Source: Candidatus Coproplasma stercorigallinarum
GTDB taxonomy: Bacteria > Bacillota > Clostridia > Christensenellales > Borkfalkiaceae
Length of the DNA: 64,000 nucleotides
Assembly (NCBI GenBank): GCA_018712655.1
Contig: DVGQ01000019.1
Location: forward strand, 856 to 64,855
Direction: 5' to 3'
Shown here: positions 46,101-63,537 of the stretch, one piece after another
Layout of the letters: each line of letters opens with the position of its first letter
Numbering within the stretch: the first letter of the stretch is position 1
Notes under the pieces: generated by a model
Told to the model about the DNA's origin: nothing
What the model saw: only the letters and a program-made list of their open reading frames with translations
The model's database searches: none
Position numbers and translations under genes: made by a program

Positions 46101-46196
46101 CTCTTCCTCCTGTTATGTTTTGTTTTTTCGTCCCGGCACGCGGTACCTTTCGTGCTGCGGCGATGAGCGGGATTGCCCCGCCAGAGCAAAATTAAA

Positions 46197-46234
46197 GCCG
46201 GAAGCCAACCGGTCATTCCGGCCGAGCTTCCGGC
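46197..46234 (-). terminator. Terminator of the RR2-HK2 operon, abutting the GH3-4 promoter
   Basis: 9-bp stem GCCGGAAGC / GCTTCCGGC with an internally paired loop. The minus transcript continues TTTAATTTTGC. Confidence 0.55.
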
Positions 46235-46237
46235 TAA

Positions 46238-46307
46238 AGTATATTTTATAAATCGCAAAAGTGTCAATATCTACCGCACGAACGATATTCTGTACCGCAC
46301 GAATCAA
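46238..46307 (-). promoter_or_regulatory. GH3-4 operon promoter with LytTR-type direct repeats
   Basis: Minus strand: TTGATTCGT (46307-46299) -12 nt- ATCGTTCGT (46286-46278) -10 nt- TTGACA (46267-46262) -18 nt- TATACT (46243-46238). An exact 11-mer TTCGTGCGGTA is repeated with a 21-nt period (plus-strand TACCGCACGAA at 46272-46282 and 46293-46303). Confidence 0.6.
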
Positions 46308-47677
46308 TCTTCCGAACAGAGGTCCGAGTGAGCATTTTTACCCGTCTTCACTGGCAGAAGAACGCTTATGCGGAAGATGTTTCCGCAGGCGTCCGCCTTG
46401 ACGTTTCCGCCGTATTTTTCGGCTATGTGGCGCACGCTTTTAAGGCCGTAGCCGTGCATTCCGCGGTCCTGCTTCTTTGTTGCGGGCAGCCCGTCTTCGT
46501 TGAAACTGAGCGTGCCGTCGAAGTAGTTTTCAACCATTATGGATATCCAGCCGCGCACCTCGTGTATGTTCACGCCTATGCAGCGCATACACTCGTCGTC
46601 AACGGCGCTCACCGCCTCTACCGCGTTGTCTATTATGTTGCCGAACAGGGCGTAAAGGTCGCCGTTTGCCATAAAGCCGATATTGCGGCAGTCGGCTATG
46701 CAGGTAATTCTTATGTTCTTGCTGCGGCAGAGAATGCTCTTGTCTGTGAGAATGAGGTCTATTACGTCGTTGCCCGTCTTTACCGAAGCATCGTACAGCG
46801 AAACGATTTCATTCATCTCGGCATAAGTCTTTTCGTCGAGCGCGTCGGCGCCGCGGCGGGCGTTAAGAAGGTGCTTGATGTCGTGGCACTTCATATTTAT
46901 CAGGTCAATCTCTTCCTTCCTCATCGCGTACTGCCTGTTGGCTTTGGAAAGAAGTTCGGTGACCACTTCCAGCTCGCCCACCACCGTTTTTTCAAACAGG
47001 ATGTTGTGCTGGATATAGAACACGAGTATGCAGCACAGAGTGTTGTAAATGCTTGCAACGCTGTCGTACAATTTGTTGTAATCGTCCACTATATACACCA
47101 CAACGGCGTTGAGCACCACGTCTATGAGCAGAATGACGCCCGAAAGCACGAACATACCAGCGCTTTTAAGGCGCAGATTTTTGCCGTCGCCTATCTTACG
47201 GCCTATCGCAAAATACACAATCGCGTATACCGCGAGATAGATGTTGACGTATACCAGCGCCGCGACGAACGTAGTCGTATCTACAGACGAAAGGTCGAAT
47301 GGGTCGTCACCGTACATTCCCTGCGCAACGAAAATATCGAACTGCGTAAAAATCAGTTTGAAAATTTCATAGGCGAGGTGCTGGACGGTGTATGCGGCTA
47401 TCGCACTGAACAGCAGACCCTTTGCAGAAGTTTCGTACATAAGAACGAGCGCGCCGCAGAACACGGCGAACATTGCAAGGAATATGAGCGAAGCCTGCCA
47501 GCCCGTGCCTGCCGCGCCCGTCATCGACAGCCCGAAAACGGAGAGATAGCACAGCGCCATTGCCCCGGCAAAGCGGACGGGAAACAGATTTCTGCGCGCG
47601 AACTTGCGCGAAAAAAGCATTCCCGCCACTATCAGCTCGGTCATAAACAGATATTCATACAACTGGAAAGCCGTCAC
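46304..47677 (-). CDS. AgrC-like (HPK10-type) GHKL sensor histidine kinase 2
   Basis: Polytopic N-terminus, H-box LINMKCHDIKHLL, N-box LFGNIIDNAVEAV, G-box GMHGYGLKSVRHIAEKYGG. Paralog of 26197..27534. Confidence 0.85.
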   Translation of the reverse strand: MTAFQLYEYLFMTELIVAGMLFSRKFARRNLFPVRFAGAMALCYLSVFGLSMTGAAGTGWQASLIFLAMFAVFCGALVLMYETSAKGLLFSAIAAYTVQHLAYEIFKLIFTQFDIFVAQGMYGDDPFDLSSVDTTTFVAALVYVNIYLAVYAIVYFAIGRKIGDGKNLRLKSAGMFVLSGVILLIDVVLNAVVVYIVDDYNKLYDSVASIYNTLCCILVFYIQHNILFEKTVVGELEVVTELLSKANRQYAMRKEEIDLINMKCHDIKHLLNARRGADALDEKTYAEMNEIVSLYDASVKTGNDVIDLILTDKSILCRSKNIRITCIADCRNIGFMANGDLYALFGNIIDNAVEAVSAVDDECMRCIGVNIHEVRGWISIMVENYFDGTLSFNEDGLPATKKQDRGMHGYGLKSVRHIAEKYGGNVKADACGNIFRISVLLPVKTGKNAHSDLCSED

Positions 47678-48390
47678 AGAAGTTTACCCCCGCCGGCGAT
47701 ATAGCTGTTGAATTCCTGCAAAAATTCCTTTCGGCGCATCTTCGAGATGACCAGCCTTTCGTTCATTATGACGACTTCGGTCGCGTTGACTTCGGTTATA
47801 TACTTCATATTGACGAGGTAACAGCGGTTGCATTGCGCAAAAGGAAGGCCTTCGAGCATCTCCTTTATTCCGCCTAGCGTGCCGCTGCACACCGTTGAGC
47901 CCTCTTCCGTATGGAAAATTATGGAGTGCTTCATAACCTCGACGTACATCAGCTTTTCGGTGTTGACAGCCTTTTTGCCGCCGCGGGTAGATACCCATAT
48001 GTTCCTGCCCTCGCGCTGGCGCATACAGTTGACCGCGCGCAGCATCTTCATCGAAAATTCAGCGTAGGTCACGGGCTTGACCATAAAATCGAAAGCGTCC
48101 ACCTCGTAGCCCTTCACCGCATACTGCGCAAGGTTGGTGACGAATATTATCATCACCTCGGTGTCGCGCTCCCTTATGCGCCGCACGAGTTCCATACCGT
48201 TCATTTCAGGCATATCAATGTCCATCATTATAAGTTCGTAGTCGCAGGAATAAACGGAAAGAAAATTGACCGAACTTTCAAAATGCACCGTTCTGAATTC
48301 GATGCCGTGCTCTGCGCCGTACTTTGAAAAGAAAGACGACAGCCGCTCTGCGGCCTTCTTGTCATCCTCTACGATGGCTACGTTAATCAT
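47674..48390 (-). CDS. LytTR-family response regulator 2
   Basis: Receiver (INVAIVEDD, LIMMDIDMPEMNG) plus LytTR domain (LMYVEVMKHSIIFHT...FAQCNRCYLVNMKYI). ATGA overlap with the kinase. Confidence 0.9.
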   Translation of the reverse strand: MINVAIVEDDKKAAERLSSFFSKYGAEHGIEFRTVHFESSVNFLSVYSCDYELIMMDIDMPEMNGMELVRRIRERDTEVMIIFVTNLAQYAVKGYEVDAFDFMVKPVTYAEFSMKMLRAVNCMRQREGRNIWVSTRGGKKAVNTEKLMYVEVMKHSIIFHTEEGSTVCSGTLGGIKEMLEGLPFAQCNRCYLVNMKYITEVNATEVVIMNERLVISKMRRKEFLQEFNSYIAGGGKLL

Positions 48391-48495
48391 ATGTTTGCTC
48401 CCCCGTTTTGCTCCCCCCGAAGGGCGTTGTCGCGCGTTTGAAATTATGCTCCCGACAGAGCATTTTGCCGAAGCCTGAAAAATTACTTAGCGTAT

Positions 48496-48524
48496 ATTGT
48501 AACACACTACCCCCCACCCGTCAA
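48496..48524 (-). promoter_or_regulatory. Predicted promoter of RR2-HK2
   Basis: Minus strand TTGACG (48524-48519), 17 nt, TACAAT (48501-48496). Confidence 0.5.
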
Positions 48525-48638
48525 GTATCAGAATTACTTTTCAACATAATGCTCAAAACTGCAAATAAAACTATTCATTTATATAAGTCTTCAACATCTC
48601 ACATTGCCGCATAGTTTTATGGGTAGCAAATAAATACA

Positions 48639-48663
48639 GCGCCCGCAATTTATTTGCGGGCGC
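48639..48663 (-). terminator. Terminator after the phosphoesterase gene
   Basis: GCGCCCGCAA-tttat-TTGCGGGCGC. The minus transcript continues TGTATTTATTTGC. Confidence 0.7.
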
Positions 48664-48670
48664 CGCACGG

Positions 48671-49363
48671 TCAGAACTTATATTCCTTTACATAAAACGC
48701 GCGGCAGGTATCTATGCAGAAACAGCCGAGAGGCCCGCCAAGCCACGTCCCCGTATCGAGGTGTATTTTGTAATAATCGCAAATATCGTCGCCGCGGCGG
48801 CCGTCGCGCTTATAGGCAAGAATTCTGTCCTCCCCGCACACGTTGCGCGTGGGAGTATGGCCGAAACAAACGCATTTGCAGTCTTTCGGGACGACCTCGG
48901 GGCGCATAAAGTTCCTGTCTTCCAGCAGAACAGCTTCGCGCGCCGATTGGGGCGGCACTATGCGGCAATTATCGTCCAGCGGCAGTCCCGCGTGCACGCA
49001 GATGAACTCCTCTTCCTCTATGTAGAGCGGCAGGGCTTCGAGCTTGTCTACCGTTTCCCAGCGCAGAAGTTTTCCGTCGCCGCCGAACCATCTTTGCAAA
49101 TCGGCGAGCACTTTATCGAAGTCGGAAGGCGACGACTTCATTACCGCCCAATAGTAGGCGAGAAAGCCGTATTCGTGGTTGCCGAGAATGCACTTTACGT
49201 TGGGCGCGTTCAGCAGAAAATCAAGCAGCCGTACGCTTTCGTCGCCCTTGTCCACCATATCGCCGCACACATACAGGACGTCGCTTGCCGAAAATTTAAT
49301 TTTATCAAGCAGGCGCATACAAAGCCCGTATTCGCCGTGGATATCAGAAATAACGTACCTCAT
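48671..49363 (-). CDS. PPP-family metallophosphoesterase (PrpE/ApaH/lambda-phosphatase-like)
   Basis: Signature motifs DIHG (VISDIHGEYG), GDMVDKG and GNHE in canonical order and spacing. Start set to ATG 49363; the listed ORF begins at TTG 49426. Confidence 0.8.
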   Translation of the reverse strand: MRYVISDIHGEYGLCMRLLDKIKFSASDVLYVCGDMVDKGDESVRLLDFLLNAPNVKCILGNHEYGFLAYYWAVMKSSPSDFDKVLADLQRWFGGDGKLLRWETVDKLEALPLYIEEEEFICVHAGLPLDDNCRIVPPQSAREAVLLEDRNFMRPEVVPKDCKCVCFGHTPTRNVCGEDRILAYKRDGRRGDDICDYYKIHLDTGTWLGGPLGCFCIDTCRAFYVKEYKF

Positions 49364-49508
49364 AAACAGTTTTCCGCCATAAGCATATAGTAGCGCCCGC
49401 ACAAAAACGTTGTTTGCCGCGCGCAAGACAGATAAGACCTCCTTTGCGGGGGTCTTGCGGCAACAAAACAGACATTAAAGAAAATTTACAACGCGTAAAC
49501 GCGCAGGT

Positions 49509-51671
49509 TCAGACGCCGTTTTCAACAATTTTATAGCCCATTGAAGATATTTCGCTGTAAAGGCGGTCCAAATCCATATAGTCGTACTGATAAATGTTAT
49601 ACAGCTCCCTCAGCCTTGAATCAGTCGGCGGCACATTGTTTATATCCTCGCCCGGATACATAACGCCGAATTTATATTCTATAAGCTCTTTCAGGCCGTA
49701 ATAGGTAGTGAGGCAGGCGTGCTGTTTGAGCGCCGTGTTTTTATGTGGCGCCACGATTTTTACGTTGCCCTCTTTATCCATCTCCTCTTTGGCGACTATA
49801 TCCTTCTTTTTCATCTGCTTGTAGTCATACAGAATGTACAGGGCGTTCCAGCGCAGATGTTCGATGAACGCCAGCACGTTGGACGACTGCAAGCCGAAAA
49901 AGAAACCGATATCGGCATAATTGTTTTCCCTGCCCGTATTTACGTATCTCTTATCGAATTCCTCTTCCGAAATTCCCGTATCGCCGTCGCCTGCGCGCTT
50001 TACCATATCAAACCCGAGCAGGTTGAGCTTGAACGGAAGGTTGAGGGCGTGATACAAATTCGACGCCTGTTCAATCATAGGGCGGCTTTCCCAATTTTCG
50101 CGCATAAGCTCGCGGCAGTCATAATTTTGCAGGCTCTTATCCAACGCCTCGCCCTGCTGCCCGACGGGAAGTTTGCGTATATCAGCCAGCCACTGCGGCA
50201 TATTGCCGATGCTGTCGTACAGCATATTGAGGCGGCGGGCAAGTTCAGAAAGTTCGTCGTTTACTATATAGCCGTGGGTATATATTTTGCTTTCGTCGCC
50301 GAAATAAATTACCTTTCCTCCGCCGAAATTTTCGGCGCTGCTCTTGGCCCTGACGAATATGCGGTAGTTTCCGTCTTCCGGCAGCAGCCTTCTGATGGTC
50401 TGCGCGTAAGAGGCGTCTTCCAGGTCGGCATTCAGCGAGATTATAAAGTAAGTGAAGCTGTTGTCCGTGACCAGTTCTTTAAACTTCTTTTTTGCCTCAA
50501 CCGAATTTATGTCGGTCTGACCTACTTCGGCTATGTCGCAAATCCTTTCGGGACGGGGGAAATCGCAGTCTTTGAAATCCTCGTCGAACTCGTAAAGCAT
50601 ACGCGAGAAAAATTCATTGTGCAGCGCCTCGCCCCTGTGGTCATAGATATAGTAATGCACGGGCTTCGATTGAAGTCTGTCGCCGCACGGGGCGGCAAAC
50701 TGGAACTGCATAGAGCACATTCTGAAAAGCTGATAGTTCATCTTGCCGAAGCCTATGAATACGATGTTTATATCCTTGTCGGGTTTAAGCGTATAATTTT
50801 CGTTGTAAAAGCTGCGGGGTATGAATTTGGTTACGGGATATTGCGCCACGAACTGCCGCGCGATAAGCTCGTGCTTGCTGAAACAACTTATGAACGAGCC
50901 CACCTTGTCGTCCGTATCCGCGATGAGGCGCTCCTTTATTATTTTTACGCTGTCCTGATTGGCTTCCATATTCAACGTCACCCTCTTACCGCCCCGTTTG
51001 ACGGTTATAAATTCTTCGATTACGCCTGTATACGATATATTGCAACCGCTGAAAAGTATAAGATTATATTCCTTGCCGCACAGTTTTTTGCCGAAATCTT
51101 TAAGCGCGCCACGGGCGACGGTGTAGCCGCCCTTGATAAGCTCGGCATAGCGGGCGCGGGTAACCGCAGGCATAAGCAGCAGACAGTTTTTATTGTTTTT
51201 TGCAAACCTTAGCGAATCTGCGCAGTCGCCTATGACTATGTCGCACCCTCTGCGCAGGGCGCGCCTTAAAGAAATGTAATTGCGTATGCGCGGGCTGAAA
51301 AAGCTGGCAACGCTTAAAACGACAGCCGCTCCGCCCGCAACGTAAGCCATTACGAACGCCGCGTAAAATACGGGATATTCATTGCATATGGGGGTTACGA
51401 GCGAGCTGTCGGCTTTGAATTTGGTTATAACTTCGAGAACGGAGCCGAGCAGCGAAAAGCAACTGAAAAAATCAAGGCCGTTGCCGTTGTAAACCCACGC
51501 CGCCATATGCAGAAAGTAAATGAGCATAAGCGTCGGCGCGAGGTATATCAGATTCTTTTTTGAAATTATCAGTTCGCCCCTGTCTTTAACCGTGCGCACA
51601 GTGGTGAAAGCTATGGCGAAAATCATCGCCGCAGATATTATCAACAATAAAATTCCAGTAACTAAAAACAT
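49509..51671 (-). CDS. Membrane protein: about 4 TM + Rossmann-like modules + C-terminal RyR-like domain
   Basis: N-terminal helices (LVTGILLLIISAAMIFAIAF, YPVFYAAFVMAYVAGGAAVVLSVASFF). Glycine-loop-like INIVFIGFGKMN. C-terminal segment with RyR-domain hallmarks (MIEQASNLYHALNLPFKLNLLGF, AFIEHLRWNALY, KQHACLTTYYGL, ISSMGYKIV). Confidence 0.55.
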   Translation of the reverse strand: MFLVTGILLLIISAAMIFAIAFTTVRTVKDRGELIISKKNLIYLAPTLMLIYFLHMAAWVYNGNGLDFFSCFSLLGSVLEVITKFKADSSLVTPICNEYPVFYAAFVMAYVAGGAAVVLSVASFFSPRIRNYISLRRALRRGCDIVIGDCADSLRFAKNNKNCLLLMPAVTRARYAELIKGGYTVARGALKDFGKKLCGKEYNLILFSGCNISYTGVIEEFITVKRGGKRVTLNMEANQDSVKIIKERLIADTDDKVGSFISCFSKHELIARQFVAQYPVTKFIPRSFYNENYTLKPDKDINIVFIGFGKMNYQLFRMCSMQFQFAAPCGDRLQSKPVHYYIYDHRGEALHNEFFSRMLYEFDEDFKDCDFPRPERICDIAEVGQTDINSVEAKKKFKELVTDNSFTYFIISLNADLEDASYAQTIRRLLPEDGNYRIFVRAKSSAENFGGGKVIYFGDESKIYTHGYIVNDELSELARRLNMLYDSIGNMPQWLADIRKLPVGQQGEALDKSLQNYDCRELMRENWESRPMIEQASNLYHALNLPFKLNLLGFDMVKRAGDGDTGISEEEFDKRYVNTGRENNYADIGFFFGLQSSNVLAFIEHLRWNALYILYDYKQMKKKDIVAKEEMDKEGNVKIVAPHKNTALKQHACLTTYYGLKELIEYKFGVMYPGEDINNVPPTDSRLRELYNIYQYDYMDLDRLYSEISSMGYKIVENGV

Positions 51672-51714: not shown

Positions 51715-53496
51715 TCAAAGATTTATTTCCGGACTGTTGTCCTTTACGTACGAACACCAGATGCCGTTTTCCACAATCTCTTCGCGGGCAATTTCCTTCA
51801 CAAACTTAGCTATCTCTTCCGCGGGGCGCGCCTTGGCCTCGCTCCACCTGGCATATGCCGAAGCGTAGAACATACTCATCTTGCGGTTGTCTTCCGCCTT
51901 GCGGCCGAATGAAAGTTTGCCGAAATAGCCCGTAAACAGCAGCGACGCCGCCGTCACCGTTCCCATCACTATTATGCCTGAGCTGCGCCAGGAAATTCCG
52001 CCCGCAAGTTCCCCGTTCCAGAACCACTCTTTGCCGAAGGCGCCAAGTATGTGCCCCGCCGCCTCCATTAAAAAGATTACGATGTATACCGCAACGGTGA
52101 TTATCGTAAGGCAGTTTGAAATCTTTGCATATTTTTCGGCTTTGTTTCTGTTTTTGACAAGTTTGTCCGTGTGATATCTGAGCTGACCGTCGGGATTTTT
52201 GCTGTTGCCTATCCACACGTCTATTATCTTCGTCGTTTCCATTTCGGGAACTTCGGCCGCGCTTACGGCGGCAACGGCCTGCAAAGCCTTGTATATCCAC
52301 GCAGAATCCACCTTCTGAGTCCAGGAATACAGCCTGCACACGTTGGCGAGTATCTGCTTTTCGCGCAGGCACAGCGACATATAGAACTGTATTCTGAACG
52401 CCTCTGAAAACGCCCTGTATTCGATATATTTTGAATGGTATCCCTTTTTGTTGCCCCGCACTATTATCCAGATAAGCGCGGCCACGGCGAGTGCGCACGG
52501 AAATATCATAAACGTCAGCGACGCGTCGTCGTACAGCATAAACGAAAATGCCACAAAGGTACCTATAATGGCTATGAGCAGTATTAACCTGTTGTAATAT
52601 TTCTGATTCCCGCCGAAAGAAACGGCGTCTGCCTTGGAATAGTGATAGCCTATATTTTTACGGTAATCGTCCAGCTCTTCGGGTCTGTCCCACAGCCTGC
52701 CGCCGCCTACGGCTCCCGCACAATTCTCGCCGTTGTACCTCACTGTTTTTGCTATTATTTCGGCCATATATGCGGGCATATCGTCGCATACGAAGTAATT
52801 GCCGAACTCCTCCGCACCCTTCTCTCCGGCGAGCGCGCCCGCCAGCCAGCGCCTGCGGACGGGCTGTTTTTCTCCGCCGCTTCTGCGGGCGTGCAGCCAC
52901 AGTACGGCGCAGTCGTTGAGTATTCCGGGATTGAACAGATGGTCGCCGTCAAGGAATTTGTGGCCGAGCGCAAAATTTATCACTTCGACTGTGCCGCACC
53001 CGAACTGCTTTTCCGGCGGGCACCCGTCCCAAAGGGCGAGCAGCACGTGGCAATGCTCAGCTATGTAAATCCCCGCCTGACGGTATTCGTAGTCGTCGGC
53101 GCCCATCTTAAATTCGCTGCCGAGCCACGCGGCATTCTTTTCAAGGTCGGGGGCAACCATTACCCGCTCTGACTTTGCAAGGTACGAACGCAGCTTTTCC
53201 GCGTCTTCGGCGTCGGTAAAACTTTTTATGTATTTTTCCTCGCTGCACGGCAGCACGGCATACACGGCTATGCCCATACCGAAGGCAACCTCCGCGCACA
53301 GCATATCCGCTCCCTGAGCAAACGCATTGAGCATTATGACGGGAGTATCGCCCCCGTCGCCGCCGCCCGAACAGGCCGACCTGATTTCCGAAAGCGCGGC
53401 GGCAACTTCACGTTTAAGTTCGTCCTTGTCCCTGCCGTCGATATTCCTGTGGCCCGTAACGCCTATGACGACGGGAATTCTTTCGCAACTCACCAT
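51715..53496 (-). CDS. SLOG-domain protein fused to a 4-TM, SLATT-like membrane module
   Basis: N-terminal Rossmannoid with SLOG hallmarks: IPVVIGVTGHR (Gly-rich loop after strand 1), NAFAQGADMLCAE, AVLP, ALWDG...GCGTVEVINFA. C-terminal half has four TM helices. The last pair is preceded and followed by amphipathic helices (RYHTDKLVKNRNKAEKYAKISN ... KLSFGRKAEDNRKMSMFYASAYARW), as in SLATT modules. Confidence 0.6.
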   Translation of the reverse strand: MVSCERIPVVIGVTGHRNIDGRDKDELKREVAAALSEIRSACSGGGDGGDTPVIMLNAFAQGADMLCAEVAFGMGIAVYAVLPCSEEKYIKSFTDAEDAEKLRSYLAKSERVMVAPDLEKNAAWLGSEFKMGADDYEYRQAGIYIAEHCHVLLALWDGCPPEKQFGCGTVEVINFALGHKFLDGDHLFNPGILNDCAVLWLHARRSGGEKQPVRRRWLAGALAGEKGAEEFGNYFVCDDMPAYMAEIIAKTVRYNGENCAGAVGGGRLWDRPEELDDYRKNIGYHYSKADAVSFGGNQKYYNRLILLIAIIGTFVAFSFMLYDDASLTFMIFPCALAVAALIWIIVRGNKKGYHSKYIEYRAFSEAFRIQFYMSLCLREKQILANVCRLYSWTQKVDSAWIYKALQAVAAVSAAEVPEMETTKIIDVWIGNSKNPDGQLRYHTDKLVKNRNKAEKYAKISNCLTIITVAVYIVIFLMEAAGHILGAFGKEWFWNGELAGGISWRSSGIIVMGTVTAASLLFTGYFGKLSFGRKAEDNRKMSMFYASAYARWSEAKARPAEEIAKFVKEIAREEIVENGIWCSYVKDNSPEINL

Positions 53497-53590: not shown

Positions 53591-54124
53591 CTAAATTTCC
53601 TGTTTTTTAATCTGCTCTGAAAAGTTGATATTGCGGTTGCCCCACGGAACAAGCACAAAATTTTTCAGCGGCTTCGAATAAATATCTATCGGATATATTT
53701 TGCAGGCGGAGTCTTCGTCGTTTATATATTGTTCGCAAACGTATCCGTTAGACTCGTAAAATTTTTTTGCAATTTCGTTTTCAAACCTGTCGGTATACAA
53801 TCTGCAAAATTTGAAGCCGCGCCTTTTTGCTTCCTCTTCAAAACGGCTTAGCGCCATACTTCCGAAGCCCTGCCGCCTGAATTCTTTCAGAATTCCGAAC
53901 CATCCGAGCCAGGCGCTTTCGGTATCGGCGGCATAATAATACAGCCCGCAGATTCCTATATTTTCTCCGCCGTGCCTGACTATCCAATAAACGTTGTCCG
54001 TAAGTTTTTCAACAGCCTCGCGGTAATTGACGTATGCGCTGTGCGATGGGAATAATTCGTTTTGTATTTTCAGTGCGACGTCAAAATTATCTCTGTTCAG
54101 ATTTACAAATTCAAGCGCGCTCAC
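53591..54124 (-). CDS. GNAT-family N-acetyltransferase
   Basis: Acetyl-CoA motif A: FGILKEFRRQGFGSMALSRFEEEAKRRG, with C-terminal FYESNGY. Start moved to GTG 54124, which gives a GTGA overlap with the TIR-gene stop and sits 7 nt after GGAG. The listed ORF starts at another GTG (54151). Confidence 0.8.
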   Translation of the reverse strand: MSALEFVNLNRDNFDVALKIQNELFPSHSAYVNYREAVEKLTDNVYWIVRHGGENIGICGLYYYAADTESAWLGWFGILKEFRRQGFGSMALSRFEEEAKRRGFKFCRLYTDRFENEIAKKFYESNGYVCEQYINDEDSACKIYPIDIYSKPLKNFVLVPWGNRNINFSEQIKKQEI

Positions 54125-55176
54125 TTTTTTTCTCCGTTTAGTTTTGAACACAATGAAGGGTATTTCTTTTGCAGATACGGATGATTTTTTATTTGCGAAA
54201 TATCTGCGTCATAAATCTTTCCGTCAGCCATATTTTTCGCAACGCACGTGAAGCCCAGGGACTGAACTACTTTTTCAAGGATGTGGGAATATACTGAAAT
54301 GCCTATCCTCTTTATAGCAATGCCTCTGTCGTACATATCTTCTATACGGCTGAACAGCTTATCCCACAGAAGCATCATATTTTTATTGTTTTCATATTCT
54401 TTCAGAATAGGCATAATTGCGATGTAGCAGTAAAATTCCCCGCCGAAATCGTAGAATTCAAGCATATCGGCGTCGACGATTTTTTCGCCGCGCAGAATGG
54501 AATTATAATTTTCCTCGTTCATTAGAACAAACTGCCAATAGCCGATTATGTTGTCATCTTTAACCAACAGCGAATATAATTCGGGATAATTGCTTACGTG
54601 GTCAAGCCACGAATCGACGTTGCCCTCTATGCTTTCGTTAATCGTAAAATCATTGTTGAGCGTAAGGTAGTCTATTTCAATTGTTTCCATTACGATTTTT
54701 TTTGCGTCATAGCCTATATTTTTTGCTTCTGCATAATCGAGGACGGTCGGCCCGGGATAATGCACCGCGCTCTCCTCTGTATTTTGGACGCTTGTGTTGT
54801 TTATCGCCGCAATCAATGCGTCAAGTCCGCCTTTGAAATCGGGAGCCGTTATCCAATGAGTGACGCCGAGGTAAAACTCCATAGCGTCTGACGGCACAGA
54901 ATCGTCGATTTTATAAGGAATGATAGTTTTATTGTGCAATACGGCGGAATTTATTTCGCGCAAAACATAGCCGGAAATATTTGATTCTTTGGTAAAAATC
55001 AAAGTTACCATATCCTGGGTTTTTATGGCGTCAACAATTTCGCACGCATAATCTTTTCCGGGTGTAATATCGCGGGGAGCAATATAACATTTAAGCCCGC
55101 GCTTTTCCAGCTCCTCAACGATGCGGAAAGCAATTTCTTTGTTGTGCGTGGAATACGATATAAACGTTGTTTTCAT
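54121..55176 (-). CDS. TIR-domain protein with an uncharacterised C-terminal domain of about 220 aa
   Basis: N-terminus TTFISYSTHNKEIAFRIVEELEKRGLKCYIAPRDITPGKDY...VTLIFTKESNISGYVLREINSAV...IIPYKID matches the bacterial TIR_2 pattern, including the conserved Glu after the S-x-[WY] element. The C-terminal part is an alpha/beta region that may be GNAT-like but lacks a clear Q/R-x-x-G-x-G/A motif. Start set to ATG 55176 behind AGGGGAA. Confidence 0.7.
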   Translation of the reverse strand: MKTTFISYSTHNKEIAFRIVEELEKRGLKCYIAPRDITPGKDYACEIVDAIKTQDMVTLIFTKESNISGYVLREINSAVLHNKTIIPYKIDDSVPSDAMEFYLGVTHWITAPDFKGGLDALIAAINNTSVQNTEESAVHYPGPTVLDYAEAKNIGYDAKKIVMETIEIDYLTLNNDFTINESIEGNVDSWLDHVSNYPELYSLLVKDDNIIGYWQFVLMNEENYNSILRGEKIVDADMLEFYDFGGEFYCYIAIMPILKEYENNKNMMLLWDKLFSRIEDMYDRGIAIKRIGISVYSHILEKVVQSLGFTCVAKNMADGKIYDADISQIKNHPYLQKKYPSLCSKLNGEKK

Positions 55177-55302
55177 AATTTTCCCCTGACCGTATAAATA
55201 TTGGTTTAATAATATAATAACATCACGGATATCCTTTGTCAATATCATAAAAATCCGATTTAATTCAACCGAAAAATATAATTTTCAAATTAAACACAGC
55301 TA

Positions 55303-55360: not shown

Positions 55361-57631
55361 ATGAAAACGCTGGCAAAACTTGCCAATAAATTTTTTGAAA
55401 ACGTCTGCTTCGCCGAAATTCCCGGCACGGCCTGCCCGGAGAGCGACAGGCAGTGCTTTATAAGGGCGCTGAACCAATTTTTGAGTTCGGGCGACAAGGG
55501 CGACGCATTTACCGTATATTTTTGTTTCAGCGAAATATTCAGGCTGTTCGGCAAAGGCTACGCAAACACCCAAAAATTGCTCGAACTGCTTTCAGACCAC
55601 GAATACCACTCGGGCGAACTGCTTTCAAAACACCGCGACCACTACTCCCACTCCGTCTACGTTTTTGCGTTAGGCCTGGCAATATATGCCAACGACGGCG
55701 TATTCCGCTCGGCATTTCTGCGATTTTACGGGCAGAAAGACGACACCCTGTCGCGCAGGGATTTTTTGTACTGCTGGGGAATGACGGCGCTGTTCCACGA
55801 CACGGGATATCCCTTTCAGCTGGCCTACGAACAGATTAAAAATTACTGCGAAGATTTGTGGGGCAGCGGCGCTGCAACCAACCCGTTCGTGACATTCGGG
55901 AACTACGATAATTTTACAGGCATAGCGGAAGAAGACGGCAGGCGCATAAGCGCGGCGCTGAAAACAGACAAAAAGTTCGCCTCGCTGAACGACCTGTTCG
56001 CATACGGGCTGAACCTGCGCTTCGGCTATGACGAAGAGGATATGCGCGTGCGCCTTAAAAAGCGCATACTCGAACAGAGGACTTTTCTGGACCACGGCTA
56101 TTTCAGCGCCGCCATACTTGCGCGCCAATTGCTTGAAAGGCCCGACATAGAGCTTACCCCAAAGCGGCTGGACGTGCTGACGGCGATAGTCCTGCACAAC
56201 AGCCTTTCGCGCTACGACTTCAACAACGAGCGCCCCGCGTCCCCCGACAATCATCCCCTTGCATATCTACTGATTCTGTGCGACGAACTGCAAAACTGGG
56301 ACAGGCAGGCCTACGGCAAGGCGAGCAAATACGACCCCGTCGCGTGGGACATAAGGCTGGCGATAAACGATGATTACATAAGCATCACGTATATTTTTGA
56401 CAGCAGCACAGCCACCGACCGCGAGAGCGGCGAAGACAGGATAAACAAACATTACGGCGATATTCAAAAAGGCAAATTCGTAAAGAACATACTCGGCGGC
56501 GACGGCAGAGGCGGACTTTTGAAAAGCTCGCTGAACCTTACGGCCGACGTAGCCGTGGCGCCCAAAGAAAAGCGCAACAAACTTTACGCCTCCGAAAACA
56601 ACTTCATAAATCTGTGCGATTTTGCAAGGGCCATTCACGCGAGTTACAGTAAACTTTGCCTGGAAACGGGATTGGAAAAACCGAAAGCCTTTGACGACCT
56701 TTCGCTGGAATTCAAAGTTTCAAACATAGAACAGGCCAAATCTTACGCCCGGAAACTTGAACTTATAAACTGTTTTTACAGCAGCAAAGACCTGGACTAT
56801 CCCGTAGTGGAAAACTTTAAAGACGGCGATTACGGGGCAATAGGTTCAGACAACCTCGGCTTTTTGTGCAGGGAAGAGCACGTGCGCTGGGTAAAGGAAA
56901 AGCTGGGAATGGGCTGGAAATACGGCACAGGCTACTCCTCCTCCGCCGAGCGCAATGAAAAGAAGATTCACAAAGACATAGTCCCCTACGAAATGCTTGC
57001 GCCGGAAGAGCAGGCCAAAGACGAACTGATGGTGAACAACATCATACCGTTTTTAAGAAAGTTCGGGCACAATATCAGAATTTATAACTACCGCATAGGC
57101 AGAAAGCCCGACCTGGAAATTGCGGGAACAGGCCACAGATTCTTTACCGACAACCCTGCCAGGCTGAAAGAGCAGATTAAAAAACAACTTGAAAAATACA
57201 GCAAGACCAACCGCGTGGTCGTGCGTACCTGTTTTGCACACGGCGCCGACCAGCTGATAGCCGAATGCGCAAACGAAATGGGCATAACAACAAAGGCCGT
57301 TTTGCCCGTCGGATACGAAGACTATATAAAAATGGTGCGCAACGACTGCCTGGCGCACGGCTATGCCTACACCGAAAAGGACGAACTTAAATTGCGGCAT
57401 CTGCTTGCCCAGACGGTAGTATGCAAAGTAGTATCCTCGCCCGACGGCGGATACAAAGCGGCGATAAATTACATAATGAAGAAGTGCGACAAGGTGATTG
57501 CCGTATGCGACTGCGAATATGCAGACGAAAGCGGCGCAGAAAGATGCGGCACCGCGCGCTGCCTTGAAATTGCAAAGCGGTACAGCCTTACCCCAGGCGA
57601 CGACATAAAAATCATACGTTGCCATAAATAA
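55361..57631 (+). CDS. Three-domain protein: HD phosphohydrolase + RyR domain + C-terminal SLOG domain
   Basis: HD: HRDHYSHSVYVFALGL ... ALFHDTGYP ... DHGYFSA ... LHN ... LILCDELQNWDR. RyR: FARAIHASY...VSNIEQAKSYARKL...CREEHVRWVKEKLGMGWKYG...KIHKDIVPYEMLAPEEQAKDELMVNNI. SLOG: LEIAGTGHR...CFAHGADQLIAECA...AVLP...AVCD...RCGTARCLEIA, the same motif series as in 51715..53496. Confidence 0.65.
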   Translation: MKTLAKLANKFFENVCFAEIPGTACPESDRQCFIRALNQFLSSGDKGDAFTVYFCFSEIFRLFGKGYANTQKLLELLSDHEYHSGELLSKHRDHYSHSVYVFALGLAIYANDGVFRSAFLRFYGQKDDTLSRRDFLYCWGMTALFHDTGYPFQLAYEQIKNYCEDLWGSGAATNPFVTFGNYDNFTGIAEEDGRRISAALKTDKKFASLNDLFAYGLNLRFGYDEEDMRVRLKKRILEQRTFLDHGYFSAAILARQLLERPDIELTPKRLDVLTAIVLHNSLSRYDFNNERPASPDNHPLAYLLILCDELQNWDRQAYGKASKYDPVAWDIRLAINDDYISITYIFDSSTATDRESGEDRINKHYGDIQKGKFVKNILGGDGRGGLLKSSLNLTADVAVAPKEKRNKLYASENNFINLCDFARAIHASYSKLCLETGLEKPKAFDDLSLEFKVSNIEQAKSYARKLELINCFYSSKDLDYPVVENFKDGDYGAIGSDNLGFLCREEHVRWVKEKLGMGWKYGTGYSSSAERNEKKIHKDIVPYEMLAPEEQAKDELMVNNIIPFLRKFGHNIRIYNYRIGRKPDLEIAGTGHRFFTDNPARLKEQIKKQLEKYSKTNRVVVRTCFAHGADQLIAECANEMGITTKAVLPVGYEDYIKMVRNDCLAHGYAYTEKDELKLRHLLAQTVVCKVVSSPDGGYKAAINYIMKKCDKVIAVCDCEYADESGAERCGTARCLEIAKRYSLTPGDDIKIIRCHK

Positions 57632-57702: not shown

Positions 57703-60585
57703 TCACGTATATTTTATCATCTTGAAGTATTTTTCCTTATGGTTATTGCCTTCGCCTCTGTTGTCGTAGGCGGACACATAAGGAATGAATCCCATAAGGT
57801 TATACAGGCTCATCGCCGAAATGTTATTTTCGTAGACAGACAAAACCACGTTTACGCCCGTCTGCTTTTCGGCAACCCTTATAATATTGTTCAGCATACA
57901 TTTGCCGTAGCCGCGGTTGCGGTAGTTTTCGTCCACGCATATGTCCGAAACATAATAATTGTCGCCGATTGCATCGTCGAACGTGTCGCACAGACTTTCA
58001 AAGGCCGACCTGGTTTCCTCAGTTACAGGCACCTTTGCCGCATTGAAGGCGTTGACCATTACATTTTCGTCCCAGGCGGGAAGTGTGCGGTAAAGCGTTG
58101 CCGCGGCAATCACTCCGTTATCGTCCGCTCCCGAGATGCGCAGCAGCCGAACATATCTTTTATTGAATACCGAATGCCCCTTGTCGAAGAGTATTTCCAG
58201 CACTTTTACGGCATTTTCCATATTGCCGAACATACGGCGGTACATAATATCGGAACAATAAATCAGTTCCGCCGCTTTTTTGTAATCTTCTTTATTTTCA
58301 AGCTGTTCAAACGACGCGCTGACGTTTGGCAGATACGCGTTGTACGGAATTATGTGGGGATTTATCCAAACATACTCCACCTTTCCCGAACGGCCCGGTA
58401 TGTGCAGGCACTTTTTTACGTTGGGCACACAGTAATACGCCTCGCCCGTACGCAATACCTCGTTTGAAATTATCTTTATCCTTATGGCCCTCTTGTTTAT
58501 CTCGCTGTCTACCGAAAGATATGCGTACCTGTACCCGTCCTGCGACATAACGCTCTGCGAGCATATTCCTATTACGGGATATATCGCGCCTTCGATTGGA
58601 GCGTCCTTTTCGGGCGAACCGTCGCGCATATAGCCTAAATACCCGCAGAAATTTTCGTGCAGCTTTCCGAGCCAGGAATCAACCGAACGCACGTCGCCGA
58701 ACGAAGATATTATGCGCTGTTTGAACGCGGCAAGCCTGTCGGAATTTATCAGGCTGCGCTTGCCTGTCATATCGTAAAACTGCTCGTTCTTGTTGGTGTT
58801 GCGCACATTCAGCGAAGCATTGAGTTTTTCAAGCTCTTCAAAGGAATCTTTTACGAGAGATTTAAGTTTTTCAAGCGTACTTCCGTCGAAATCCTTTATC
58901 AGGCACATAGTATTGTAGCGCTCGTAGATATTTCTGCGGGCGACAGACGTGGCCTGACGGAAGAAATCATAGCTTATGGAAGAGAGCTGTTTGCCACCCG
59001 AGTCAGAGAAGAACAGCATTTCACTCTCTTCTATATCCCTGATTTTCTGCTTATCGTAATAGCTGAGCAACCCGTCGTAAAAAACAACTATAAACATATT
59101 GAAGTTTATAATTTTGTTTACGTAATAAATGACCTTTTCCTTCGGGTTCAGCGAAGCATTTTCGTAAACATTGTTGATGTCATCCAGGATTTCGGCAACC
59201 GACGAGAGCGACTCGTTGAAAGACACGCTCACTTCGTTTGCCGTGAGCAGTTTGGTGGCGAAAAATATGAGCGCCTGAACCTGACAGCTTACGATGTTGT
59301 TCGCATTCCTTAAAGTAAGTTTGCTCGTCGGGTCGCGTATTATCTCGTAAGTATCTTCAAGTTTTTTCACGTTCTCGCCAAACCTGAGCCTGAACGCGTT
59401 TTTTACTGCGTTATAGCTCAAATCGGTATTTTTAAACAGATATGTAAGCAGATTATATATTCCGACTTCGAGAAGCAGAAAGATAAAAATTTCGTCCCAA
59501 TGAATTATCTGGGAATTCCCGAGCTTTTTGAAAACTTCTCCGTAATCGTTGCGATAGTGGTTATATACCTTCCTTTTGCTGTCTATGCTTATAAGGTCAG
59601 AGATGGTCATTGCAAGGTACTTTATGTACTTGTTGTCTACGAAGAAGAAATCCCTAAAAAAATAGTTCTCGCTGCCTCCCGGCACGTTGAAGAGCCTGTA
59701 TTTGAACATAAAGTCTTCTATCGCGGTGTCGCTCACAACGCACACTTTATATCCCTTACCCGCCGCGTTTTCTTCGGAAGACTTGTCCAGAAAAACAATT
59801 TTGTACTCCATCCTGGCAAACAGCGGCGCATATTCCGCCGCAAGCATCTGGCTTTTTTGCGGATTGTCTGCCGTGAATTTGCGGGGGTCGTCAATCCACA
59901 CGCCGTAAAGATAGTCAATCTGGCCGTTGATTTCGGTAAGCAGTTCGTCGAGGCACAGCTTTTCGCCGTCGATGGTCAGGTTTACCGTCCTCAGCGGCCT
60001 GTTGCAGCAGGGCAGCGGCACGTATTCGGCGGAAGCGTTCCCCAAAAACGGGAAGGCACGGAAAAACCTTTTAAGGCTATCGAACCCGAACTGCGCATCG
60101 TAACGACTGGAAAGCATACGCTTTTTAAGGGCGAAAATGAACTTGCTGAGGTCGTTGCCGAGCACCGAAAAATTGAAGCACCCCTCCATTCCCACCTTTT
60201 GTATAAATCCGTCGGCAGGGGAAAGCGAGGAATCGACTTGAAGATTGAGCAATACGTTTTCCACCAGATTGAAGTCAAGCCGCCTGGTGGAATAACATTC
60301 GTCGAACATATTGTAAAGGCGCACCATCGAATTGGAAAAAGACGCTATCTCGCGAGCGCGCTCTTCGGCGTCGAGTTCTTCGAACCACGCTTTATAGCTT
60401 ACAAATTTTTTGTAAGTTATTAAAGTGACAAGATAGAGCGTATTTTTGAAATAATCGATATATTTGCCTATATTTGAAAGGAAAGAGCTGCTTGTTTCGC
60501 CCGACTCAAAGATGATATCCCTCAGCACGCTGTCGGGAATCAGCCTGATTATTTCGTTGCGCCGGGCAGTAAGTTCGTCAGTCAT
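57703..60585 (-). CDS. Large (960 aa) uncharacterised protein with a C-terminal GNAT acetyltransferase domain
   Basis: The last ~170 aa carry GNAT motif A (ICVDENYRNRGYGKCMLNNIIRVAEK) and LYNLMGF. The first ~780 aa are helical, N/K/Y/F-rich, with no motif I recognise. ATG overlaps the ParA-like gene stop by 8 nt. Confidence 0.55.
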   Translation of the reverse strand: MTDELTARRNEIIRLIPDSVLRDIIFESGETSSSFLSNIGKYIDYFKNTLYLVTLITYKKFVSYKAWFEELDAEERAREIASFSNSMVRLYNMFDECYSTRRLDFNLVENVLLNLQVDSSLSPADGFIQKVGMEGCFNFSVLGNDLSKFIFALKKRMLSSRYDAQFGFDSLKRFFRAFPFLGNASAEYVPLPCCNRPLRTVNLTIDGEKLCLDELLTEINGQIDYLYGVWIDDPRKFTADNPQKSQMLAAEYAPLFARMEYKIVFLDKSSEENAAGKGYKVCVVSDTAIEDFMFKYRLFNVPGGSENYFFRDFFFVDNKYIKYLAMTISDLISIDSKRKVYNHYRNDYGEVFKKLGNSQIIHWDEIFIFLLLEVGIYNLLTYLFKNTDLSYNAVKNAFRLRFGENVKKLEDTYEIIRDPTSKLTLRNANNIVSCQVQALIFFATKLLTANEVSVSFNESLSSVAEILDDINNVYENASLNPKEKVIYYVNKIINFNMFIVVFYDGLLSYYDKQKIRDIEESEMLFFSDSGGKQLSSISYDFFRQATSVARRNIYERYNTMCLIKDFDGSTLEKLKSLVKDSFEELEKLNASLNVRNTNKNEQFYDMTGKRSLINSDRLAAFKQRIISSFGDVRSVDSWLGKLHENFCGYLGYMRDGSPEKDAPIEGAIYPVIGICSQSVMSQDGYRYAYLSVDSEINKRAIRIKIISNEVLRTGEAYYCVPNVKKCLHIPGRSGKVEYVWINPHIIPYNAYLPNVSASFEQLENKEDYKKAAELIYCSDIMYRRMFGNMENAVKVLEILFDKGHSVFNKRYVRLLRISGADDNGVIAAATLYRTLPAWDENVMVNAFNAAKVPVTEETRSAFESLCDTFDDAIGDNYYVSDICVDENYRNRGYGKCMLNNIIRVAEKQTGVNVVLSVYENNISAMSLYNLMGFIPYVSAYDNRGEGNNHKEKYFKMIKYT

Positions 60586-61474: not shown

Positions 61475-61518
61475 ATTACTCCCCTTTTGTACAAATATCT
61501 TTATAAAAACCTTTCGGC

Positions 61519-63534: not shown

Positions 63535-63537
63535 AGT

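Follow-up and report, generated by a model that had tools for sequence, protein, structure and literature searches.

SLATT domains (SMODS and SLOG-associating 2TM effector domains) take their name from their association with SLOG domains, an association that Burroughs et al. are said to have predicted in 2015. In animals' TRPM2, gating by ADPR proceeds through an N-terminal SLOG-like domain. SLATT has been predicted to be a membrane effector regulated by ADPr derivatives (PMC9503650). The SLOG domain of the Thoeris protein ThsA binds 3'cADPR, and the SLATT effector ThsH is activated by TIR-made cADPR in its canonical form and, by prediction, forms oligomers in the membrane (Yirmiya et al. 2025, bioRxiv 10.64898/2025.12.03.692087). 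The same study names 'SLOG and 4TM' or '4TM SLOG' as a putative Thoeris effector (Tables S1-S2), and two 'SLOG and 4TM' systems, from Streptomyces and Nitrospira, failed to protect E. coli MG1655 (bioRxiv 10.64898/2025.12.03.692087). The SLOG-4TM concept has already been predicted (Burroughs et al. 2015; Yirmiya et al. 2025) and is not a new principle. The novelty implied by a sequence-only reading of the gene described here was overstated, in view of both the SLATT name and the earlier study that had put 'SLOG and 4TM' among the candidate Thoeris effectors and found it negative in E. coli. The value of the present locus lies in a well-defined SLOG-4TM family, its operon partners and a set of testable residues.

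The gene occupies 51715..53496 on the reverse strand of the window (the whole stretch of 64,000 nucleotides that was analysed, from Candidatus Coproplasma stercorigallinarum), and its 593-aa ORF spans exactly these positions from ATG to stop. The product was assigned as a SLOG + 4TM (double SLATT-like) protein from the ORF, a family alignment (A1, 44 sequences; some profile counts were taken over 49 members) and an AlphaFold2 (AF2) model with a pLDDT of 90 and a pTM of 0.90. Because homologues are numerous (126 word-indexed homologues, more than 431 in GTDB species representatives and, at E<=1e-30, at least 2,190 clusters of 50% identity), this is not a chance ORF. The clusters with a readable source come mostly from uncultured gut and rumen Clostridia (Bacillota). 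The family is patchy across species, its genomic context is variable, island-like and low in GC, and the direct SLOG-SLATT fusion is kept throughout. A search of phage genomes gave no match, and in IMG/VR there were three SLOG-only matches and a single full-length relative, which lies at a contig end; the family is cellular and not phage-borne. No SLOG or SLATT model of Pfam or NCBIfam reaches its threshold in the window protein, and the PADLOC 2.0 effector models did not match it.

The N-terminal domain (residues ~7-205; 52882..53478, reverse strand) was identified as a YpsA-like SLOG domain, predicted to be cytoplasmic, from Foldseek comparison, Pfam matches in relatives and invariant residues. 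The SLOG motif series noticed earlier in residues 1-200 is present in full: VIGVTGHR (10-17), QGADMLCAE (61-69), AVLP (80-83) and LALWDG...GCGTVEV (152-173) form the most conserved columns of the 44-sequence alignment, in which G12, H16, G62, D64, P83, R139, Q140, W156, C167 and G168 are invariant. In alignments A1 and A4, G12, G15 and H16 of GVTGHR and C167-G168-T169 of GCGT are invariant or nearly so. Residues G62-A63-D64, with G and D invariant, correspond to the G-x-D/E signature of the YpsA-like clade, which has been predicted to be a substrate-binding signature (PMC6459960). The SLOG fold was assigned by fold comparison, since PDB sequence searches with HMMER (using the protein, the family profile and the N-domain profile) yielded no relevant match to either the SLOG or the TM part. 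The best PDB match of the AF2 model was B. subtilis YpsA (2nx2; E 2e-4, TMt 0.66), and the best 15 matches were all SLOG members (YpsA, DprA, ShosA), each with a Foldseek probability of 1.00. LOG enzymes ranked well under YpsA and DprA, and a Moco carrier protein and the TRPM5 N-domain (rank 25, probability 0.89) stood lower in the list. Structures of ThsA were absent from the best 50 matches, and the STALD profile neither matched the window protein nor appeared among the 25 families listed for the 44 members. Pfam matches of SLOG type among these members were to YAcAr (9, best E 3.5e-4), YpsA (1) and DprA (1). Judged from the model, the N-domain has a SLOG fold that is YpsA-like and not of the STALD (ThsA) type. 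When the domain was checked for membership of another Rossmann family, it came out as SLOG, and neither a plain LOG enzyme nor a DprA enzyme with housekeeping neighbours describes it. A variable beta/helical insert and linker (residues 206-276; 52669..52881, reverse strand) separates the SLOG domain from the membrane module; it is gap-rich and length-variable in A1 and contains strands (215-237) and a helix (242-256) in the AF2 model.

YpsA (2nx2) and the YAcAr clade share the G-x-D/E signature and the order of motifs with the SLOG-4TM protein, and this clade has been linked to NAD/ADP-ribose and to conflict systems (PMC9503650, PMC6459960). YpsA itself differs in that it is soluble, stands alone and has been linked to the inhibition of cell division, and its sequence similarity to the SLOG-4TM protein is too low for HMMER searches of the PDB to detect. 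In ThsA of type I Thoeris (SIR2-SLOG), a TIR-made cADPR isomer is received by a SLOG domain, which turns on the effector fused to it; this effector is, however, a soluble SIR2 NADase and the SLOG is of the STALD type, whereas the SLOG-4TM protein combines a membrane module with a YpsA-like SLOG.

The four long hydrophobic helices reported at residues ~300-560 were recovered as four Kyte-Doolittle segments between residues 303 and 526 (~303-322, 328-346, 463-483 and 507-526). The cytoplasmic-side flanks of the TM segments are rich in K/R (3, 6, 7 and 8 residues), the TM1-TM2 loop is short and acidic (YDDAS) and the TM3-TM4 loop is Trp-rich. The predicted topology is N-in, with a cytoplasmic SLOG domain on two 2-TM hairpins of the SLATT type. 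Hydropathy and AF2 secondary structure give these hairpins cytoplasmic helical flanks, with long helices at 277-324, 328-351 and 353-377 and again at 438-486, 503-528, 530-554 and 559-585. The amphipathic helices said to bracket the last two TM segments are real, as long helices are found there in the AF2 model.

Hairpin 1 (residues 277-377; 52366..52668, reverse strand) was assigned to the SLATT type from DUF4231, weak SLATT_1 and SLATT_3 matches and hydropathy. It contains TM1 (residues 303-322; 52531-52590), which follows the stalk helix, and TM2 (residues 328-346; 52459-52515), both on the reverse strand, and a conserved cytoplasmic helix, YRAxxEAxRxQ, after TM2. Pfam DUF4231, a member of the Pfam SLATT clan, aligned with residues 298-373 of the window protein (E 6.6e-4; 20.5 bits, cutoff 24.7) and matched 37/44 members (best E 6.6e-8), many of which carry a precomputed PF14015 match. 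SLATT_1 matched 5/44 members, and the NCBIfam models SLATT_1 and SLATT_3 gave weak matches to residues 286-375 of the window protein. When the TM region was checked against transporters, it was these SLATT-clan models that matched and no transporter family. A helical connector (residues 378-437; 52186..52365, reverse strand; AF2 helices at 386-429), predicted to be cytoplasmic, joins the two hairpins and carries the invariant residues W400 and W428.

Hairpin 2 (residues 438-554; 51835..52185, reverse strand) was delimited from sub-threshold SLATT_4 matches, hydropathy and conservation. Its stalk helix carries the motif GQLxYH and a K/R-rich helix follows TM4; TM3 (residues 463-483; 52048-52110, reverse strand), with the invariant Glu478, was placed by hydropathy and conservation, and TM4 (residues 507-526; 51919-51978, reverse strand) by hydropathy. 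Of 49 members, 25 gave a match of NCBIfam SLATT_4 to hairpin 2; the best E was 1e-5, and no match reached the curated cutoff of 55 bits. The match in the window protein had an E of 0.0039, and Pfam SLATT_4 matched 2/49 members. Hairpin 2 is thus weakly SLATT-like as judged from these profiles. The 4-TM SLATT-like module of the sequence-only reading is supported in hairpin 1 by DUF4231, SLATT_1 and SLATT_3 and in hairpin 2 by SLATT_4 matches below threshold. The sub-alignments of hairpins 1 and 2 showed no significant profile similarity in hhalign (probability 1.5%), and for this reason a tandem duplication is not claimed. Near the C-terminus lies a conserved helix (residues 559-585; 51742..51822, reverse strand; AREEIVENGxWxSY), seen in the alignment and as an AF2 helix, in which E576 and W580 are invariant and at least 90% of the sequences share R571, E572, E573, N577 and G578.

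ThsH of type VII Thoeris is likewise a SLATT-type membrane effector beside a TIR gene. It differs in carrying a SLATT annotation only, with ligand pockets modelled between protomers, whereas the SLOG-4TM protein has an N-terminal SLOG and two hairpins. The CBASS membrane effectors (SAVED-4TM, Cap15 and the SLATT-type 2TM proteins) are described as a nucleotide sensor joined to membrane-disrupting TM helices and as acting by abortive infection; their sensors are SAVED or others and their signals are cyclic oligonucleotides made by CD-NTases, which sets them apart from the SLOG-4TM protein.

A TIR-domain gene (54121..55248, reverse strand; Pfam TIR_2, E 5.8e-16), a probable signal generator or sensor, lies 625 bp upstream of the SLOG-4TM gene on the same strand. 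The TIR domain covers residues ~26-140 of its product and is followed by an unassigned C-terminal domain of ~210 aa. Translation probably starts at Met25 (nt 55176), and a promoter-like site is present at 55242-55214. The position of the catalytic Glu is kept (YVLREI aligns with WVRYEI of BcThsB), and PADLOC gave weak ThsB and SAVED-TIR matches. The TIR context of the gene is thereby borne out in the window, and the linkage recurs across the family. A GNAT acetyltransferase gene (53591..54151, reverse strand; Pfam Acetyltransf_1, E 5.7e-14) sits between the TIR and SLOG-4TM genes and overlaps the 3' end of the former. Downstream of the SLOG-4TM gene follow a gene for a 720-aa protein with three N-terminal TM segments (49509..51671, reverse strand) and a metallophosphatase gene (48671-49426; Pfam Metallophos, E 8.5e-15), after which a strong intrinsic-terminator-like hairpin with a 15-bp stem (48634..48668, reverse strand) marks the probable end of the operon. 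The 720-aa gene co-occurs with the SLOG-4TM gene in the closest relatives; its product had no Pfam or PDB match, and a RyR-like motif in it was not significant in profile-profile comparison.

Divergently transcribed from these genes is a gene for a 756-aa protein (55361..57631, forward strand), to which Pfam and Foldseek assign an HD-like N-domain, a RyR repeat and a C-terminal YpsA-like SLOG domain. The RyR repeat is found by Pfam (E 2e-7) and by profile comparison with RyR repeats in the PDB (E 2e-14). The HD-like call relies on Pfam HD matches in 7/31 homologues, which are weak, and on invariant His and Asp residues. Foldseek returned matches for the SLOG part only, with YpsA at E 2.9e-5, and this SLOG is paralogous to that of the SLOG-4TM protein (29% identity, E 3e-10).

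Linkage was assessed in 79 non-redundant SLOG-4TM loci over a range of 10 kb, 39 of which are fully flanked. A TIR or TIR-like (DUF4062) gene is present within 10 kb in 27 of the 39 fully flanked loci and missing from this range in the other 12; strict TIR criteria give 40/79 loci. The 79 loci hold 69 TIR genes, of which 67 are on the strand of the SLOG-4TM gene and 63 upstream of it, and up to 7.5 kb from the SLOG-4TM gene there are 6-8 TIR genes per 100 kb, as opposed to 1.2 per 100 kb farther out. Sensor-type repeats (LRR, STAND/NACHT, WD40) occur beside the TIRs, TIR-like DUF4062-NACHT genes are among the neighbours of Bacillota members, and a distant proteobacterial member on a Caballeronia plasmid is flanked by a TIR + WD40 pair. 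TIR linkage is conserved across the SLOG-4TM family and across phyla, and is not universal. The HD-RyR-SLOG partner is present in 26/39 fully flanked loci; counted over all 79 loci, a homologue lies within 10 kb in 43 and is adjacent (at most 317 bp away) in 29.

The computational checks named in the sequence-only reading came out in its favour. Overall, the data make it probable that the SLOG-4TM protein serves as membrane effector in a Thoeris-like (TIR-signalling) conflict system, and the best-supported reading is one in which a TIR-made nucleotide binds the SLOG domain and gates the SLATT effector. Upon infection, the TIR protein (elsewhere TIR-LRR or TIR-STAND sensors) would turn NAD+ into an ADP-ribose-derived signal, for which the invariant GHR, GxD, E119, R139-Q140, WDG and GCGT residues form the predicted pocket in the SLOG domain. 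The long stalk helices may relay binding to a rearrangement or oligomerisation of the hairpins, with the invariant Glu478 in TM3 and Tyr322-Asp323 and Arg504 at the outer face as candidate pore or gate residues. The membrane would be permeabilised or depolarised, and growth would therefore stop or the cell die before phage release. The HD-RyR-SLOG protein may be switched on in parallel by the same signal.

A more far-reaching version of this proposal, which we regard as tentative, is a hitherto undescribed TIR-signalling system with two effectors in gut and rumen Firmicutes, in which one YpsA-type SLOG is carried on a double-SLATT effector and on an HD-phosphohydrolase with a RyR repeat, both answering a TIR product, and in which sensing is done by TIR-LRR, TIR-STAND or TIR-X proteins; alternatively, the close relatives that lack a TIR would answer a different, non-TIR nucleotide. 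Such sensing is reminiscent of the plant TNL and animal TLR receptors. If this version were true, the RyR repeat beside a receptor for a cADPR-type signal would be a prokaryotic antecedent of the animal cADPR-RyR connection.

The loci without a TIR gene also fit an account in which the core is a TIR-independent nucleotide-sensing module, made up of the HD-RyR-SLOG and SLOG-4TM proteins, to which the 720-aa TM protein may or may not belong. The SLOGs would then sense NAD+, ADPR or the nucleotide of another generator, the membrane output would be of the same kind, and the TIRs would be optional inputs or NAD+-depleting effectors. We consider this unlikely. In its favour, the partner is the immediate neighbour in 29 loci, 6 of the 39 fully flanked loci have the partner and no TIR, and a further 6 have neither. 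In the closest relatives (loci L010, L012, L014 and L022) the partner and/or the 720-aa gene is present with no TIR within 10 kb, the flanks holding unrelated genes only (surface proteins, ADH, an IS element). Moreover, Yirmiya et al. caution that the TIR in unverified types may be an NADase effector (bioRxiv 10.64898/2025.12.03.692087). However, the enrichment of TIR genes is strong and they lie upstream in the same orientation, even in the distant proteobacterial member; the TIR of the window keeps its catalytic Glu, like the signalling ThsB; and contigs are often short, so that a TIR may be encoded elsewhere.

It is less probable still that the SLOG domain is an enzyme and not a sensor, that is, a membrane-anchored, N-glycosidase-like nucleotide processor that makes, trims or destroys a signal, as SLOG enzymes of the LOG family do, with the TM part serving as an anchor or for docking of partners. 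The many invariant polar residues of the pocket (H16, D64, E119, R139, Q140) agree with such a role, and analyses from the Aravind laboratory weigh both sensor and enzymatic roles for SLOGs of the YpsA clade. The alignment of the SLOG profile with nucleoside 2-deoxyribosyltransferase was weak and not significant (E 0.41), and Foldseek places the LOG enzymes well under YpsA and DprA. In a single locus the same type of SLOG is found on two unrelated output scaffolds, a pattern that fits an input domain common to both. The TM module is of the SLATT family of effectors, and its high conservation, which extends to the membrane-embedded Glu, is unlike that of a passive anchor.

An ordinary housekeeping membrane protein or transporter with a coincidental TIR neighbour is highly improbable and transporter identity was rejected, for the matches to TctB, MFS_1 and CitMHS are isolated, weak (E > 0.01) and confined to single members, no transporter family recurs across members as DUF4231 and the SLATT models do, and the variable, low-GC, island-like context, the patchy species distribution and the strong statistical linkage to TIR effectively refute it family-wide.

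Under the TIR-signalling reading, the family would represent a widespread, still putative branch of TIR-based immunity in the gut microbiome and one more abortive-infection barrier for phage therapy or microbiome engineering. With two putative effectors per system, the locus is a concrete place to seek a new TIR product. The SLOG-4TM protein may also reveal the way in which a membrane module is gated by a SLOG domain, for which the nearest functional analogue is the gating of TRPM2 by ADPR. TRPM channels resemble it in placing a cytoplasmic domain of SLOG fold (MHR1/2) on an ion-conducting membrane module, a likeness limited to the SLOG fold; their TM module is unrelated, being a 6-TM tetrameric channel as opposed to a 2x2-TM SLATT arrangement.

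The published 'SLOG and 4TM' proteins share the stated architecture (SLOG and four TM segments) beside a TIR gene, a comparison made by description alone. They come from Streptomyces and Nitrospira, whereas the gut-Bacillota loci add the HD-RyR-SLOG protein and often TIR-LRR sensors. The 'SLOG and 4TM' protein of Ca. Nitrospira nitrosa was sought via its TIR in Table S1; this yielded only TIRs of 55-64% identity on short contigs, and the one usable neighbourhood (L091) was unrelated. Type III Thoeris, in the account of van den Berg et al. 2024 as cited in PMC13276650, consists of several TIR proteins and an SMF/DprA-type SLOG effector. Several TIRs with a non-STALD SLOG effector are also what the SLOG-4TM loci offer, at least two TIR genes being present in 23/79. 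Membership of type III was rejected: the NCBIfam effector model did not match, and ThcB4 matched TIR proteins only, at 19-22 bits against a cutoff of 220. Separately, a related YpsA-type SLOG was observed in a plasmid operon of the order TIR-caspase-SLOG-TIR.

The gene at 51715-53496 on the reverse strand, which the sequence-only reading had called as a SLOG sensor fused to a 4-TM SLATT-like module, is a genuine open reading frame of exactly the length called (593 aa). We found 126 word-indexed homologues, and GTDB species representatives contained more than 431 relatives; among the matches listed for the latter, every one is a Bacillota MAG of gut or rumen origin. By exhaustive profile search we obtained 10,106 clusters at 50% identity (E≤1e-3; 2,190 at E≤1e-30), and the best 150 are nearly all near-full-length (~480-680 aa), with a few shorter fragments. 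The family was absent from the phage genomes searched and nearly absent from IMG/VR, and PADLOC returned no match for the protein. Modelling with AlphaFold2 from a 44-sequence family alignment yielded a confident single body (pLDDT 90, pTM 0.90).

In this alignment, conservation in the N-terminal third centres on the motifs from which a SLOG domain had been proposed (GVTGHR, A-x-GAD, LP, YRQ, LALWDG and GCGT), with G12, H16, G62, D64, P83, E119, R139, Q140, W156, C167 and G168 invariant. Residues 7-205 are modelled as an alpha/beta domain, for which the top Foldseek matches in the PDB were exclusively SLOG-superfamily proteins: B. subtilis YpsA led (2nx2, E 2e-4, TMt 0.66), followed by DprA from three species, ShosA, Moco carrier protein and, lower down, the TRPM5 N-terminal domain. 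Pfam gave no match to the N-domain of the window protein itself; among the 44 relatives it assigned YAcAr to 9, YpsA to 1 and DprA to 1. G-x-D/E is the signature of the YpsA clade and a predicted substrate-binding motif (PMC6459960), and since the invariant G62-x-D64 fits this signature, the head is a YpsA-type SLOG. It is not of the STALD type of ThsA, because no STALD profile match was found and no ThsA chain occurs among its top 50 Foldseek matches.

Hydropathy placed four TM segments (303-322, 328-346, 463-483 and 507-526), the number first read, with K/R-rich flanks on the SLOG side, a short, acidic first outer loop and a Trp-rich second one; the chain is N-in and forms two hairpins (TM1-TM2 and TM3-TM4). 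In the AlphaFold2 model a long stalk helix precedes each hairpin and an amphipathic helix follows each, in agreement with the amphipathic helices noticed earlier around the last two segments. The proposed SLATT likeness of the whole module stood for hairpin 1 and is tentative for hairpin 2. Hairpin 1 matched Pfam DUF4231 in 37 of 44 relatives (best E 6.6e-8; for the window protein E 6.6e-4 and 20.5 bits, under the cutoff of 24.7) and, weakly, SLATT_1 and SLATT_3. Hairpin 2, scanned alone, matched NCBIfam SLATT_4 in 25 of 49 relatives (best E 1e-5, all below the curated cutoff). To judge from these profiles, 'double SLATT' is a reasonable description, not a proven one, because profile-profile comparison detected neither similarity between the hairpins nor a duplication. 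Foldseek against the PDB gave no convincing match to the TM part. Invariant residues are Tyr322-Asp323 in the outer turn of hairpin 1, Glu478 in the middle of TM3 and Arg504 at the outer end of TM4, and the C-terminal helix carries the conserved motif AREEIVENGxW.

In the window, five genes with short gaps share the reverse strand, in the order TIR (54121-55248; TIR_2, E 5.8e-16), GNAT (53591-54151, overlapping the 3' end of the TIR gene and lying between it and the predicted effector), SLOG-4TM, a 720-aa TM protein (49509-51671) and a metallophosphatase (48671-49426), after which comes a strong terminator-like hairpin (48668-48634, reverse strand). A good sigma70-like promoter on the same strand (55242-55214) lies within the TIR frame as listed, and the true start of the protein is therefore probably Met25 (nt 55176). 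The TIR domain retains a Glu at the position aligned to the catalytic one in ThsB of B. cereus; the C-terminal ~210 aa have no family assigned. The 720-aa protein has three TM segments at its N-terminal end and could not be assigned to a family, and its large domain had no Pfam or PDB match; an 'EHLRWNA' motif in it looks RyR-like, but the profile comparison gave no significant result. Its gene accompanies the SLOG-4TM gene in the four closest relatives (L010, L012, L014, L022).

Divergent from this probable operon, and equipped with separate promoter- and terminator-like sites, lies the gene for a 756-aa HD-RyR-SLOG protein (55361-57631, forward strand). Its N-domain is predicted to be HD-like, with invariant His/Asp and Pfam HD matches in 7 of 31 homologues; the RyR repeat scored E 2e-14 against solved RyR repeats, and the C-terminal SLOG is 29% identical to that of the SLOG-4TM protein (E 3e-10) and likewise has YpsA as best structural match. 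The family of this partner gave more than 1,500 matches at E≤0.001. In a survey of 79 non-redundant loci of SLOG-4TM homologues, a partner homologue was found at ≤10 kb in 43; in 29 it is the immediate neighbour (≤317 bp), and in 38 it shares the strand. In animals cADPR is linked to RyR, which makes it curious to see an RyR repeat paired with what may be a receptor for a cADPR-type signal.

Strictly defined TIR domains were present in 40 of the 79 loci, with at least two TIR genes in 23; 67 of 69 TIR genes are co-oriented with the SLOG-4TM gene and 63 of 69 lie upstream of it. Within 7.5 kb of this gene the density of TIR genes was 6-8 per 100 kb, and beyond that distance 1.2 per 100 kb. The 39 loci flanked by ≥8 kb on both sides divide into 20 with partner and TIR, 7 with TIR only, 6 with partner only and 6 with neither. 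A recurrent operon, typical of the 30%-identity branch, encodes in this order a ~280-aa TIR protein, in which the catalytic Glu is missing, a ~390-aa TIR-LRR protein, in which it is kept, 1-3 LRR proteins of ~1000 aa, the partner and the SLOG-4TM protein (for example L041, 2016-11593; likewise L008, L043, L055, L082 and others). These operons of rumen and gut Clostridia place two TIR genes and the large LRR proteins upstream of the two SLOG proteins, a bacterial TIR-LRR arrangement. Alternative sensors are TIR-STAND (L001, L003) and DUF4062-NACHT (L006, L074). A different recurrent neighbourhood was seen downstream in the 45-55% identity branch (L003, L018, L021): an AAA+ ATPase of ~660 aa, two proteins of ~158 aa, VWA proteins, a protein of ~593 aa and a Ser/Thr kinase.

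Overall, the best-supported reading, which we hold to be fairly probable, is that of a TIR-signal-gated membrane effector. Its computed support comes from fold and topology, from the affinity to the SLATT clan, from the conserved, co-oriented linkage to TIR genes, and from one SLOG input type that occurs, within a single locus, on two different output scaffolds. In ThsA the SLOG binds 3'cADPR, and the type VII Thoeris SLATT effector ThsH is activated by TIR-made cADPR and, as modelled, spans the membrane as an oligomer (bioRxiv 10.64898/2025.12.03.692087); SLATT is a predicted membrane effector regulated by ADPr derivatives (PMC9503650). A putative TIR-derived signal would bind the SLOG head and may cause oligomerisation or gating via the stalk helices, with Glu478 and Arg504 as candidate participants in a pore or gate and abortive infection as the presumed end result. 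The main rival takes partner and effector as the core module, for which a signal of non-TIR or distal origin could suffice; it is favoured by the four closest relatives and a third of the fully flanked loci, which have no TIR nearby, and we consider it rather unlikely. A catalytic role of the SLOG is doubtful, and a housekeeping role is highly improbable.

The SLOG-SLATT link is reportedly owed to Burroughs et al. 2015. The very name of SLATT, 'SMODS and SLOG-associating 2TM effector domain' (Pfam description), makes the link a decade old. Yirmiya et al. (Dec 2025; bioRxiv 10.64898/2025.12.03.692087) include '4TM SLOG' / 'SLOG and 4TM' in a list of 29 putative types of Thoeris effector and cloned two 'SLOG and 4TM' systems (Streptomyces sp. 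GKU 895 and Ca. Nitrospira nitrosa) in E. coli, with defence given as 'No'; our protein is likened to these by described architecture, not by sequence. Since both the link and this type precede our analysis, the protein is one more case of a predicted, experimentally unverified kind. Membership of type III Thoeris was rejected, there being no match to the type III models. Our additions are the definition and size of the family, the YpsA-type assignment of its SLOG, the weak affinity of hairpin 2 to SLATT_4, the recurrence of the HD-RyR-SLOG partner, the operon type with TIR-LRR genes and specific residues for mutation.

Two relevant plasmid loci lie outside Bacillota. On plasmid pSBC2-4 of Caballeronia sp. 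SBC2 (L092; NZ_CP049320.1, ~20.5-27.9 kb), the SLOG-DUF4231 protein WP_165106806.1, annotated 'DUF4231 domain-containing protein', matches the family profile (E 4.6e-28) over the SLOG part as well as the TM part; a TIR protein and a protein with WD40 repeats come next. The annotated start of the SLOG-DUF4231 protein seems to truncate the first SLOG strand, since the match found by tblastn already starts 39 nt before the CDS. Plasmid p4 of Rhizobium binae (L093; NZ_CP071608.1, ~180.7-183.1 kb) carries TIR, caspase family, DUF1273 and TIR genes in this order; the DUF1273 protein is a YpsA-type SLOG, 27% identical to that of the SLOG-4TM protein. This operon is similar to a type IV Thoeris-like system, the stand-alone SLOG being extra.

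On both strands of 43183-51212 in the window, many long antisense ORFs mirror real genes, such as 46328-47704 (forward, 458 aa) opposite a histidine-kinase gene (46304-47677, reverse); they were rejected as genes, being artefacts of codon composition. GC falls from ~55% to 43-49% across 54-64 kb, a pattern that fits an acquired island. In this low-GC stretch, the reverse strand of 57703-63924 encodes a 960-aa protein, in which a C-terminal GNAT domain is all that was recognised; after it come three ORFs of 298, 671 and 128 aa, to which Pfam gave no match; these genes may constitute another conflict system in the same island.
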